From: Methanocaldococcus indicus
Lineage (GTDB): Archaea; AGJL01; Methanococci; Methanococcales; Methanocaldococcaceae
Length of the DNA: 64,000 bases
Reading direction: 5' to 3'
NCBI RefSeq assembly: GCF_049554935.1
Contig: NZ_CP186926.1
Location: 352,001 to 416,000 of the forward strand
Shown: in pieces, positions 8,042-49,367 of the stretch
Layout of the letters: the number at the start of each line of letters is the position of its first letter
Numbering within the stretch: the first letter of the stretch is position 1
Notes under the pieces: generated by a model
The model's input: only the letters and a program-made list of their open reading frames with translations
What the model was told of the DNA's origin: nothing
Database searches by the model: none
Translations under genes and position numbers: made by a program

Positions 8042-10174
8042 ATGGATTTAAAAGAAAGAATAGAACAACTACCAATCCCAAAAAAGTTAAGAGAAGAGTT
8101 ATATGAAAAATTAAGTAAAGAAAAAGATTTAACTGATGAGATGATAGAAGAGATAATAAATGAAGTAGTTAATAGATACTATAATGCTTTAATTGAACCA
8201 TATGAAGCTGTTGGAATTGTTGCTGCTCAATCTATTGGAGAGCCAGGTACTCAGATGTCTCTACCTTATGAAGAAAAGATAATTATTAAAGAAGGAGATT
8301 ATATAAAAGCTGTTGAAATTGGTAAGTTAGTTGATGAAATGATTGAAAAATATGGTTTTGAGAAAATAGGAAATAGTGAAGTTTGTGACTTGCCTATTGA
8401 TATCTATGCTTTAAGCTTAGACCAAGATGAAAAAGTACATTGGAAAAGAATTATTAGTTGTATTAGACATAAACACAATGGAAAATTAATAGAGATTAAA
8501 ACAAAATCAGGTAGAAGAATAGTAGCTACTCCATACCATTCATTTGTTGTTAGAAAAAACAATATAATAGTCCCTGTTAAAGGAGAAGAGTTAAGAGTCG
8601 GGGATAGATTACCAGTTGTAAGATATGTTCCTGCTAACTGTGTTGAATATGTGGGAGATATAAAACTTAACTATGATGTTGGTTATAACAACAAATTTGA
8701 AAATATTGAAGAATTTATTTTAGGGGCAAATAAAGAGTTTGTAAAAGGATTTTTAGATAAAATTAAGAAAGATAAAATTGTTGGAAATAAAGAATATATA
8801 AATTTAATAGCCTTACTATTTTCAAGATTTGGAATATACACAATTAAGAAAAAAATTAAAGATAAATATATTCTATTAGTTGAAGATTATGATAACACCT
8901 ATGTTCCATCTATTGGAGATAGTTTCTTAAATTTAGGAAAGTTAGTAGGATATCCAGAAGTAATATTAAATTATTACACTAAAAAACAAAAAATTAAAAG
9001 AAAAGTTTTGAGAAGACATTTAAAAAGATTTGAAGAGTTGGCTAAAATAAAAGGAGTTGATATATTTAAATTAAATGATTATTGGTTGTTAAAGAAGGCA
9101 GTTGATAGTGATGTTGTTTGGGATAAAATAGTTGAAATAAACTATATAGATTATAATAAAAAATATGTCTATGATATAAGTGTTGAAGGGTTAGAGACAT
9201 TTACAACCTTTGAGGGAATATTGACACACAACACAATGAGAACCTTCCACTATGCTGGGGTTGCTGAGTTAAACGTTACATTAGGTTTGCCGAGAATGAT
9301 TGAGATAGTAGATGCAAGAAAAGAGCCATCAACACCAATAATGAAAATCTTCTTAATGGAACCTGAGAATAAAGAATTAGCTGAAAGAATAGCTAAGGAA
9401 ATAGAAAGTTTAACATTAGAAAATGTCTCTAAAAATATTGGTATTGATTTATGGAAAGAAGCTATAAAAGTTGAATTAGATGAGAAAATCTTGGAAGATA
9501 GAGATTTAACTGTTGATGAAATTGTTGAAGCTATTAGAAAAAAAGTTAAAGTTAGAATAGATATTGAAGGTTACACATTATATTTAAGAATTAAAACACC
9601 TTCTATAAAAGCATTAAGAAAGAGAATTCCTAAAATTAAGTCAATACATTTAAAAGGAATTCCAGGAATTAAGAGAGTTCTTGTTAAAAAGGAAAATATT
9701 GATGGAAAGGAAGAGTATGTTCTATATACACAAGGTTCTAACTTAAAAGAGGTTTTAGAAATTGAAGGAGTTGATTATAGAAGAACTACAACTAACAATA
9801 TAATTGAGATTCAAGAAGTTTTAGGAATAGAAGCTGCAAGAAATGCAATAATAAATGAGATGAAATCAACATTAGAAAATCAGGGGCTTGAAGTAGATAT
9901 AAGACATTTAATGTTAGTTGCTGACATGATGACAGCTGATGGAGAAGTTAAACCTATTGGAAGACATGGAGTTGCAGGAGAAAAAGGTTCTGTATTAGCA
10001 AGAGCTGCATTTGAAGAAACTGTTAAACACCTATATTCAGCTGCTGAAAAAGGAGAAGTTGATAAATTAAAAGGAGTTATTGAGAATGTTATAGTTGGAA
10101 AACCTATATTCTTAGGAACTGGTTGTGTTGAGTTGTTAATTGATAAAGAGTATGAAGAAGGTAAAAAAGAATAA
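8042..10174 (+). CDS. rpoA2: RNA polymerase subunit A'' (Rpo1C), intein-containing
   Basis: AAQSIGEPGTQM / TMRTFHYAG split by an insert; LARAAFEET; ATG at 8042 chosen over GTG at 8033. Confidence 0.96.
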   Translation: MDLKERIEQLPIPKKLREELYEKLSKEKDLTDEMIEEIINEVVNRYYNALIEPYEAVGIVAAQSIGEPGTQMSLPYEEKIIIKEGDYIKAVEIGKLVDEMIEKYGFEKIGNSEVCDLPIDIYALSLDQDEKVHWKRIISCIRHKHNGKLIEIKTKSGRRIVATPYHSFVVRKNNIIVPVKGEELRVGDRLPVVRYVPANCVEYVGDIKLNYDVGYNNKFENIEEFILGANKEFVKGFLDKIKKDKIVGNKEYINLIALLFSRFGIYTIKKKIKDKYILLVEDYDNTYVPSIGDSFLNLGKLVGYPEVILNYYTKKQKIKRKVLRRHLKRFEELAKIKGVDIFKLNDYWLLKKAVDSDVVWDKIVEINYIDYNKKYVYDISVEGLETFTTFEGILTHNTMRTFHYAGVAELNVTLGLPRMIEIVDARKEPSTPIMKIFLMEPENKELAERIAKEIESLTLENVSKNIGIDLWKEAIKVELDEKILEDRDLTVDEIVEAIRKKVKVRIDIEGYTLYLRIKTPSIKALRKRIPKIKSIHLKGIPGIKRVLVKKENIDGKEEYVLYTQGSNLKEVLEIEGVDYRRTTTNNIIEIQEVLGIEAARNAIINEMKSTLENQGLEVDIRHLMLVADMMTADGEVKPIGRHGVAGEKGSVLARAAFEETVKHLYSAAEKGEVDKLKGVIENVIVGKPIFLGTGCVELLIDKEYEEGKKE
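8258..9232 (+). mobile_element. Intein (325 aa) in RpoA''
   Basis: Starts SLPYEE, block B ATPYHSF, ends VYDISVEGLETF...THN followed by Thr; removal restores GTQM-TMRTFH. Confidence 0.93.
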
Positions 10175-48559: not shown

Positions 48560-49003
48560 TTGGATAACAATTATCACGCTAAAAATTTTTATTTTTTGAT
48601 TTTATTGGGTTTTAGTTGATTATTTTCAATTTAGAGGATTTTTAGGGAAATTCAGAGGGGTCTGTATTTTGAATATTTTATATATTCTAATTATATAATC
48701 TATTGAGATTTTTAGGTGTTTTATGTCGTTCCTTTTAATATTTGAAAATCTCCAATAAATAGAGTTGATTTTTTAATATAAAAAATTTTTAATTGAAAAA
48801 TATGGAATAGAAAGATTTTTATAAAAGTTCAAAGGTATATAAATGAATAGGGAAACCTACCCTTCAAAAAATTTTTATGTAGAAAAGCTTATATATGAGA
48901 AGGTCGTTAATGTTATTATGTCTAAAATGTGCCAATAAGCCCTTTTTGTTTCATAAATATTTTTAGAGAATGTCGTTAATGTTATTATGTCTAAAATGTG
49001 CCC
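48560..49003 (+). promoter_or_regulatory. CRISPR leader with BRE/TATA-like element
   Basis: Long AT-rich non-coding stretch abutting repeat 1; GAAAAGCTTATATA near 48882-48895; left boundary approximate. Confidence 0.7.
48903..49002 (+). repeat. 31-bp direct repeat flanking a 38-bp insert at the end of the leader
   Basis: GTCGTTAATGTTATTATGTCTAAAATGTGCC at 48903-48933 and 48972-49002. Confidence 0.95.
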
Positions 49004-49367
49004 GCTAAAATCGTGCCTCTTGGAGGATGGAATTTTTATTTTAGAGTGTTTAATATATCATCTGATTACGAGCTAAAATCGTGCCTCTTGGAGGATGGAA
49101 TATTTTGCCACTTCTGAAACTCTTAACCCAAATAACCGCTAAAATCGTGCCTCTTGGAGGATGGAATTTATAATAATCATATTAAGAAGATGCAGAAGAA
49201 TGTCTTAAAAATGCAGAGTACTTGGAGGATGGAATTTATAATAATCATATTCTTCCTTTTTCTCCCATGCTAAAATCGTGCCTCTTGGAGGATGGAAACT
49301 TTTTTATTAAATTTATAGGATGTGGAGTTAGATTTGCGCTAAAATCGTGCCTCTTGGAGGATGAAAA
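49004..49367 (+). CRISPR. CRISPR array, 5 full repeats plus one partial repeat; no cas genes in window
   Basis: About 30-bp repeat GCTAAAATCGTGCCTCTTGGAGGATGGAA(T/A) at 49004, 49072, 49138, 49269, 49338 (last degenerate); half repeat at 49221; internal hairpin CCTC-TTG-GAGG; spacers of 33-39 bp. Confidence 0.95.

Follow-up and report, generated by a model that had tools for sequence, protein, structure and literature searches.

Described cases of off-target spacer integration

In spacer acquisition, Cas1–Cas2 carries out two staggered transesterifications which, once the gaps are repaired, leave a spacer-sized insert bracketed by a duplication of about one repeat length. The reaction can reportedly also take place at the wrong site, since Nivala, Shipman and Church are said to have found in 2018 that off-target integration by an overexpressed type I-E integrase creates neo-CRISPR loci in Escherichia coli. 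Natural cases of a circumstantial kind, in two other species, are credited to the same authors in bioRxiv 148544. The mechanism of staggered integration and gap repair is restated for the type I-B system of Haloarcula hispanica, in which the leader-distal cut is independent of sequence and the duplication becomes 31 bp instead of 30 when repeat bases 16–30 are mutated (Wang et al. 2016, PMC4872114). The Cas1–Cas2 of Pyrococcus furiosus attacks off-target sites in vitro that are paired 30–31 bp apart on opposite strands (Grainy et al. 2019, PMC6698737). Ectopic acquisition in the middle of the array has also been described in type II-A Streptococcus, as summarized in a later review (Achigar 2017 and 2021; McGinn and Marraffini 2016, via PMC8047081). 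Most of what is known of ruler-based and off-target integration comes from systems that were engineered or studied in vitro, and our literature search found no description of natural out-of-register integration within arrays, which is no proof of absence.

The locus described here lies in a window of 64,000 nt from the chromosome of Methanocaldococcus indicus, and its structure is best explained as one off-register spacer integration by the type I-B Cas1b–Cas2 of this archaeon, measured by a ruler of about 31 bp; we put the probability of this reading at roughly 0.85. The proposal of off-register integration, already made in an earlier note on this DNA, is supported by a spacer-sized insert, a discrete protospacer, a duplication of about repeat length and the presence of cas1b, cas2 and cas4 in the genome. 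The E. coli loci reportedly share with this event the spacer-sized insert, the repeat-length duplication and the non-canonical site, but they lie outside arrays, whereas the window event is natural, belongs to an archaeal type I-B system, falls within an array at a repeat/spacer junction, and has a known protospacer in the cell itself. H. hispanica is similar in its type I-B system, its 30-bp repeat, a leader-side start defined by sequence and an end that is independent of it; the cases described there are, however, engineered laboratory mutants in which the start is always the leader–repeat junction, and here the events are natural and their registers shifted (PMC4872114). The P. furiosus system has the same 30-bp repeat, 37-bp spacers and off-target sites that share features of repeat and leader, but it was studied in vitro on plasmids and strongly preferred to attack at G, a preference not seen here (PMC6698737). 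The type II-A ectopic events also affected repeats other than the leader-proximal one, and one of them was steered by a leader-like sequence; they were in register and added a full unit, in contrast to the window event, which is shifted by half a repeat and leaves a half repeat behind (PMC8047081). Laboratory work has already revealed the mechanism, and the window event is a clean natural case and not a new kind of event. Nor is the idea of a ruler new (PMC4872114, PMC6698737). Off-register integration is a known kind of integrase error that is rarely visible so clearly.

Anatomy of the array and of the duplicated 31-mer

The window contains a small CRISPR array on the + strand (49004–49367) with five 30-nt repeats, none of which is expected in shuffled sequences. 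Repeats 1 (49004–49033), 2 (49072–49101) and 3 (R3, 49138–49167) are exact, repeat 4 (R4, 49269–49298) has one mismatch, and repeat 5 (49338–49367) is a degenerate terminal repeat with two. The leader is on the left and the degenerate final repeat on the right. The Rfam family CRISPR-DR39 matches four of the five repeats at 30.8–31.6 bits, below its gathering score of 39, and serves as a weak label only. Measured from repeat to repeat, the spacings are 68, 66, 131 and 69 nt; 131 nt is the sole outlier, the other spacings being 63–76 nt (26 spacings in six arrays of the window's repeat family).

The long interval between R3 and R4 harbors the 31-mer CTTGGAGGATGGAATTTATAATAATCATATT twice at 100% identity, at 49153–49183 and 49221–49251, around an insert of 37 nt (49184–49220). 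The duplicated unit is composed of bases 16–30 of R3, which are its final 15 nt, and 16 nt from the start of the old spacer. Both copies are maximal, as the flanking bases differ (T/A before, A/C after). When the insert and one copy of the 31-mer are removed, R3, a 33-nt spacer and R4 are restored. This original spacer is still intact at 49236–49268, but is now preceded only by the 15-nt half repeat at 49221–49235. The description of the duplication, the insert and the restored unit in the earlier note proved correct in every detail when the sequence was rechecked. Its statement that the 37-mer is unique holds within the window, where it occurs once, and fails for the genome, which carries an exact chromosomal copy and a plasmid copy matching at 35/37 positions.

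The duplication exceeds the repeat length by 1 nt, and its placement differs from that left by the better-known processes. Canonical adaptation duplicates the exact repeat at the borders of the leader-proximal repeat, which is not the arrangement found here. Ectopic acquisition in register leaves a complete new repeat–spacer unit, and here the insert is followed by a 15-nt half repeat only. Slippage presents the whole unit twice, spacer included, and the 37 nt occurs once in the array. Finally, neo-CRISPR loci are sited outside any array and this event lies within one. The insert also has the size of a spacer, its 37 nt being the median of the 78 normal spacers of the genome, which range from 32 to 48 nt.

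Chance and read support

Exact direct repeats of at least 20 nt at a spacing of 45–95 nt form 78 pairs in the 1.436-Mb genome, and only five of those pairs, at four loci, lie outside CRISPR arrays or leaders. If repeats with at least 29/31 matching bases at a spacing of 55–94 nt are considered, five loci are found outside arrays, three of which are tandem repeats. A chance origin of the 31-bp duplication is excluded.

CRISPR arrays are rich in repeats, and the genome contains the insert sequence exactly a second time, so a mis-join or a mis-resolved repeat might have brought reads of the source gene, which encodes a HEPN-domain protein, into the array. The support comes entirely from assembled contigs and unitigs, the latter being k=31 Logan unitigs of run X1 at about 25x, possibly built from the same data as the assembly. 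The unitigs at 49006–49165, 49154–49213, 49191–49250 and 49222–49300 show 0 differences at depths of 25.3–25.9, equal to that of the flanks. One of them (49154–49213) runs from the first copy of the 31-mer into the insert, and another (49191–49250) from the insert into the second copy; since they carry 30 nt on both sides, the two chimeric junctions are present in the reads. Every junction, for which the earlier note had suggested a check in raw or long reads, is found in read-derived unitigs at single-copy depth. Moreover, the unitigs were built independently from the reads, with both chimeric junctions at 25.4–25.9x, the HEPN-gene continuation is seen separately in them as a loose end, and the assembled order is the sole linear path through the unitig junctions. 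An assembly artefact is accordingly considered extremely improbable. The 31-bp repeat corresponds to exactly one k-mer at k=31, and a minority allele without the insertion is therefore compatible with the unitigs and may exist in run X1.

Source of the insert

The insert matches positions 1171348–1171384 of the chromosome (C1) at 37/37, at a distance of 770 kb from the array, and a second copy, at 35/37, is found at positions 9761–9797 of a 22-kb plasmid (C2). Identity to the chromosomal copy is confined to the insert and breaks off at its exact ends, and the chromosomal sequence on either side (TATACCA before, TGTTTT after) has no relation to the array. The match is located near the 3′ end of a gene for a 146-aa protein with a HEPN domain (Pfam HEPN, E = 3e-26), a toxin family. 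This gene overlaps an upstream nucleotidyltransferase gene, and the two are a typical HEPN/MNT pair; the plasmid has a paralogous pair with 59% protein identity, and its 35/37 copy of the insert is located in the paralogue.

A spacer joined from another array had been named in the earlier note as an alternative origin of the 37-mer. It is ruled out as such, given that the sequence sits in the HEPN gene. The search of host, viruses and plasmids, also proposed there, returned the exact host copy, 0 exact matches among the IMG/VR viral contigs and, among plasmids, identities of at most 85.7% over 35 nt. This best plasmid match, in a HEPN gene of a Methanocaldococcus plasmid, was rejected as a foreign source, and so were the phage matches, which are short and unrelated. 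None of 16 genus relatives carries the 37-mer at up to three mismatches. In two metagenome runs (X2 and X3) the protospacer is found in its HEPN-gene context, without the array junction. The insert is a discrete 37-bp piece of gene sequence, and the cell's own gene is its most likely source. The pre-insertion allele, with the original 33-nt spacer, was found in none of the 16 other genomes of the genus (five of them less than 90% complete) and in no metagenome contig.

The protospacer is flanked on its 5′ side by CCA. In Thermococcales, CCN is a PAM. The earlier note had recommended comparing such a flank with those of normal spacers; protospacers of the latter in the cell's own genome number 0/78, one 25-nt match at 92% being judged a chance match. 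The 15 spacers of the array at C1:441k have no match in plasmids and phages, and a spacer common to two arrays was found in 0 viral contigs and 0 metagenome contigs. Comparing the C1:441k array with the genus by BLAST gave chiefly matches between repeats, which served to locate the arrays of relatives. A match to a non-array region of the genome is seen for 0/78 normal spacers vs 1/5 off-register inserts, numbers that are small and no proof by themselves. The sole perfect self-match among the 78 normal spacers and the five off-register inserts sits in the broken frame. Self-targeting CRISPR spacers have reportedly been described by Stern et al. in 2010. They match the host chromosome perfectly, as the insert does, with the difference that the frame of the insert probably yields no working crRNA.

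Cas machinery

The genome carries a cas operon, probably of type I-B, at C1:958–967k, in the order cas6, an IS6 transposase, a 517-aa ORF, cas7, cas5b, cas3, cas4 and cas1b, followed by cas2 on the opposite strand. NCBIfam profiles identify Cas1b (TIGR03641, 449 bits against a cut-off of 304), Cas2 (TIGR01573, 52 bits against a cut-off of 24.5), Cas4, Cas3, Cas5b, Cas7 (Cst2/DevR) and Cas6. No NCBIfam match was obtained for the large subunit Cas8b, and the 517-aa ORF that occupies the place of cas8b has no family match. The IS6 element in this operon and a 39-nt insert before cas1 may bear on the large number of off-register events in the genome.

Proposed integration and its consequences

The proposed model has three steps. 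A 37-bp prespacer would have been cut from the HEPN gene of the cell's own chromosome, the source being observed and the enzyme inferred. Its two 3′ ends would then have attacked sites 31 bp apart on opposite strands, a geometry that is read from the duplication. The top-strand attack would have fallen between bases 15 and 16 of R3, just after GTGCCT, which may act as a mimic of the leader end GTGCCC, and the bottom-strand attack 16 nt into the adjacent spacer, where no likeness to a repeat end is apparent; the order and the specificity of the two attacks are part of the proposal. Gap filling would finally have duplicated the 31 bp. In this model the leader-side cut appears to follow the sequence, and a protein ruler of about 31 bp sets the second cut regardless of it. 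The acquisition had been described as a mid-array one, but R3 may have been the leader-proximal repeat at the time of the event.

The half repeat probably has consequences for processing. For the full repeat a small hairpin is predicted (–5.3 kcal/mol), and for the half-repeat context no RNA structure. Only the 3′ half of the repeat follows the insert, without the 5′ half and the hairpin, so that no Cas6 cut is expected there. The unit between R3 and R4 would then give rise to one long chimeric crRNA whose guide begins with the 16 nt of the old spacer, and neither the old spacer nor the self-matching one would serve as a guide any longer. A perfect self-match could be tolerated because the half-repeat frame disarms the self-matching spacer; in other words, the self-derived spacer probably persists thanks to a half repeat that cannot be processed. 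This would explain concretely how an array can keep a perfect self-match without autoimmunity. Programs that call arrays will list loci of this kind as a single ‘spacer’ of 100 nt.

As the role of Cas1–Cas2 is itself deduced and an IS6 transposase is encoded in the cas operon, it could be argued that another integrase or transposase, or an error-prone repair of a break, in which 37 nt were copied and the flanks duplicated, made the structure. Yet the insert has no terminal inverted repeats when read directly, the events of this kind cluster in arrays, leaders and the cas operon, and the insert sizes fit the distribution of spacers. IS elements and casposons leave target duplications that fall far short of 31 bp. 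A process other than Cas1–Cas2 integration is, for these reasons, rated as very improbable.

Further off-register duplications

The window event is not an isolated one, as at least three further out-of-register duplications of 31 bp (one of them 31–32) are found around inserts of 34–37 nt in the same genome. The registers of the events relative to the nearest repeat start are +15, –23 and –14. In the array at C1:441k, which belongs to a second repeat family, the duplicated 31 bp consist of the final 23 nt of spacer 3 and the first 8 nt of repeat 4, around an insert of 34 nt. In the array next to cas2 (C1:967k, minus strand), they consist of the final 14 nt of the leader and the first 17 nt of the repeat, around 37 nt. 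A further event is nested in the latter, with 31 bp counted from the leader–repeat junction, reaching 14 nt past the broken repeat (32 by maximal match), and an insert of 36 nt. Outside arrays, at C1:965777–965881, 33 bp that extend over the cas4 stop and the cas1 start are duplicated around 39 nt, leaving both genes intact. No source was found in the cell's own genome for the other four off-register inserts, and the 34-nt and 39-nt inserts match nothing in viral contigs or in 40 genomes of the class.

The leader of the window array could carry another event. This leader (48700–49003, + strand) is 79–91% identical to the sequence upstream of 11 other arrays of the genome. It contains an exact duplication of 31 nt, at 48903–48933 and 48972–49002, around an insert of 38 nt that ends at 48971; alternatively, with one G/T mismatch, the copies extend to 37 nt (from 48897 and from 48966, respectively) and the insert is reduced to 32 nt (48934–48965). 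The second copy abuts the GTGCCC|GCT junction with the first repeat. The sequence is present in a single copy in the other five leaders of the window repeat family, and the unitig at 48904–49001 has 0 differences at 24.5x. No source of the leader insert was found in the own genome. Its classification as a further off-register event is ambiguous.

The scan of relatives suggested in the earlier note, for duplications of about 31 bp around spacer-sized inserts, yielded one clear case among 68 array-bearing loci of the genus, which hold about 782 repeats and were scanned as windows of 1–5 kb. In that relative (G004), the first repeat is lacking 6 nt and the duplication reaches 6 nt into the spacer; it measures 31 bp by maximal match and 30 bp if it starts at the canonical junction. 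Events are found at a rate of four to five in 12 arrays with 92 repeats here vs one in the 68 loci with about 782 repeats of the genus relatives.

It might be proposed instead that slippage or recombination duplicated the R3–R4 unit in tandem (R3–spacer–repeat–spacer–R4), and that a stretch of 32 nt, reaching from the end of the first spacer copy through half of the middle repeat, its first, was later replaced by 37 nt from the HEPN gene. Duplications of whole repeat–spacer units do occur in this genome, as repeats of 96 nt and 103 nt at C1:441768 and C1:1004150, and in relatives as well, although they look different from the structure in the window. Two events would be needed, the second of which has no known mechanism, and no microhomology was found between the HEPN flanks and the array junctions. 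The exact 31-bp remainder would also be left unexplained, as would the 31 bp at three other loci and registers. We regard this two-step history as very unlikely.

Under off-register integration, in turn, one finished genome provides a small natural series of four to five events in different registers, one of them with a known source. The series would reveal the stagger that a type I-B integrase produces in vivo where the distal repeat half is missing, and it suggests which sequence attracts the first cut. The Cas1b–Cas2 of M. indicus could serve as a simple system for models of the ruler and of leader recognition.

Length of the ruler

A ruler that works independently of repeat boundaries had been proposed from the window event, and the events at three other registers in the same genome, the candidate one in the leader and that of G004 support the proposal. 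The window duplication is firmly 31 bp, as the match to the protospacer defines its ends independently. The lengths of the other duplications are maximal exact matches, to which chance can add a base, and read in this way they are 31, 31, 31–32, 31 (or 37 with one mismatch) and 30–31, none being 30. From these lengths, a ruler of 31 bp is favoured over a mix of 30 and 31.

A canonical duplication that is itself 31 bp long was considered and rejected: base 31 is inherited only in the array at C1:935k (7/8), and for the base after the repeat the overall identity between adjacent units is 29/80 (permutation p = 0.07). Position 30 of the repeat changes in blocks along arrays, for example between CCCCCAAA and TTTAA, a pattern that fits a base within the copied unit. 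Judged from this pattern of inheritance, most arrays duplicate 30 bp in the canonical reaction. Read directly, the six duplications have no motif in common at their distal ends, and no common motif or G preference was seen by eye at the attacked bases.

Entry site

The leader-side cut seems to have a different basis. The first 15 nt of R3, GCTAAAATCGTGCCT, resemble the final 15 nt of the array's own leader, GTCTAAAATGTGCCC, with 13/15 bases aligned and one gap on each side. Within the array, the leader end is matched best by registers 14–17 of each repeat, and the observed site takes 10th place among 349 positions. Both the canonical junction of the window array and the aberrant site are located one base after GTGCC. 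The leaders of the other arrays end in GTGCCTCCT, three bases longer, and their cut falls 9 nt after the G of GTGCC instead of 6 nt. The resemblance suggests, in an argument made post hoc, that a leader-like motif within the repeat attracted the leader-side attack. Such an entry motif recalls the leader-anchoring idea from type II-A systems (PMC8047081).

A broader reading, which we hold only tentatively and consider doubtful, is that in this lineage only the leader-side cut is read from sequence, through TAAAAT..GTGCC, which the leader end shares with the first half of the family-1 repeat, and that the other cut is placed purely by the ruler of about 31 bp. Each repeat could then act as a decoy entry site, and mis-registration would be a regular and heritable source of variants as well as a safe sink in which self-derived spacers are disarmed. 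If this were true, seed arrays, rebuilt leader ends and new variants of the repeat would arise through mis-registration. It might be exemplified by the nested events in the array beside cas2, an array of variant-ended repeats in a relative (G002) and a leader end that resembles a half repeat.

Out-of-register duplications within and outside the arrays

Duplications lying out of register with the repeats are also found in other arrays of the M. indicus chromosome (C1). An array of the second repeat family carries a 31-bp duplication around a 34-nt insert at C1:441345-441440 (~846-941 of the extracted locus L012), the duplicated unit being made up of 23 nt of spacer and 8 nt of repeat. The array adjoining cas2, on the minus strand at C1:967164-967342 (in L011, the type I-B cas operon region), holds two nested 31-bp duplication events, both upstream of its single full repeat. 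In one of them the duplication spans the leader-repeat junction, and in the other it begins at this junction and extends beyond a broken repeat. The cas2 gene lies immediately downstream of this array, on the same strand, and is convergent with cas1.

Within the same operon region, a 33-bp duplication surrounds a G+C-richer 39-nt insert at C1:965777-965881, its position coinciding exactly with the stop of cas4 and the start of cas1; both genes retain the junction in an intact copy of their own. The structure is a possible off-target integration outside any array. An IS6-family transposase gene (L011:2843-3487; C1:958842-959486) is located between cas6 and the remainder of the type I-B operon.

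Leaders of the arrays

The final 37 nt of the leader of the window's array are present twice (window 48897-49002), with one G/T mismatch and an exact part of 31 nt, the insert between the copies being 32 nt (or 38 nt) long; the leaders of the other five arrays of this repeat family (family 1) have a single copy of this segment. The window's array, in addition, has a leader-repeat junction shorter by 3 nt than the others (GTGCCC followed by GCT, versus GTGCCTCCT followed by GTT). At each of the 12 arrays (window 48985-49003 and C1:441140-441166, for example), the conserved leader closes with ~18 nt (GTCTAAAATGTGCCTCCT) that are similar to nucleotides 1-18 of the family-1 repeat (GTTAAAATCGTGCCTCTT). 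The end of the leader thereby has the look of a half repeat, also where the array belongs to the other repeat family. The same conserved leader precedes the 6-repeat array of the 22-kb plasmid (C2:10740-11400), which lies ~1 kb from the HEPN/nucleotidyltransferase pair of this plasmid.

Spacers, variant repeats and unit duplications

One spacer is common to two arrays of different repeat families (C1:935501-935539 and C1:1004459-1004498). Its copies share the 5' end, with a difference of 2 nt at the 3' end, as would fit a single protospacer captured twice independently, its 5' end being set by the PAM.

In a genus relative (G002), the array at ~1020-1500 of L058 (C1:759000-762000) has a variant repeat, with CTAATA in place of GGAAAT as its last 6 nt, which is carried through at least seven units; the integrase seems to copy a 30-nt length irrespective of the distal sequence, and a changed crRNA tag would be expected. 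In another (G014), the minus-strand array at ~1280-1410 of L035 (C1:520758-523900) has two leader-proximal spacers of just 20 and 18 nt.

Entire repeat-spacer units are tandemly duplicated in M. indicus at C1:441768-441929 and C1:1004150-1004320, with exact repeats of 96 and 103 nt, respectively, and comparable unit duplications occur in several relatives (loci L021, L036, L055, L063, L065, L073 and L076).
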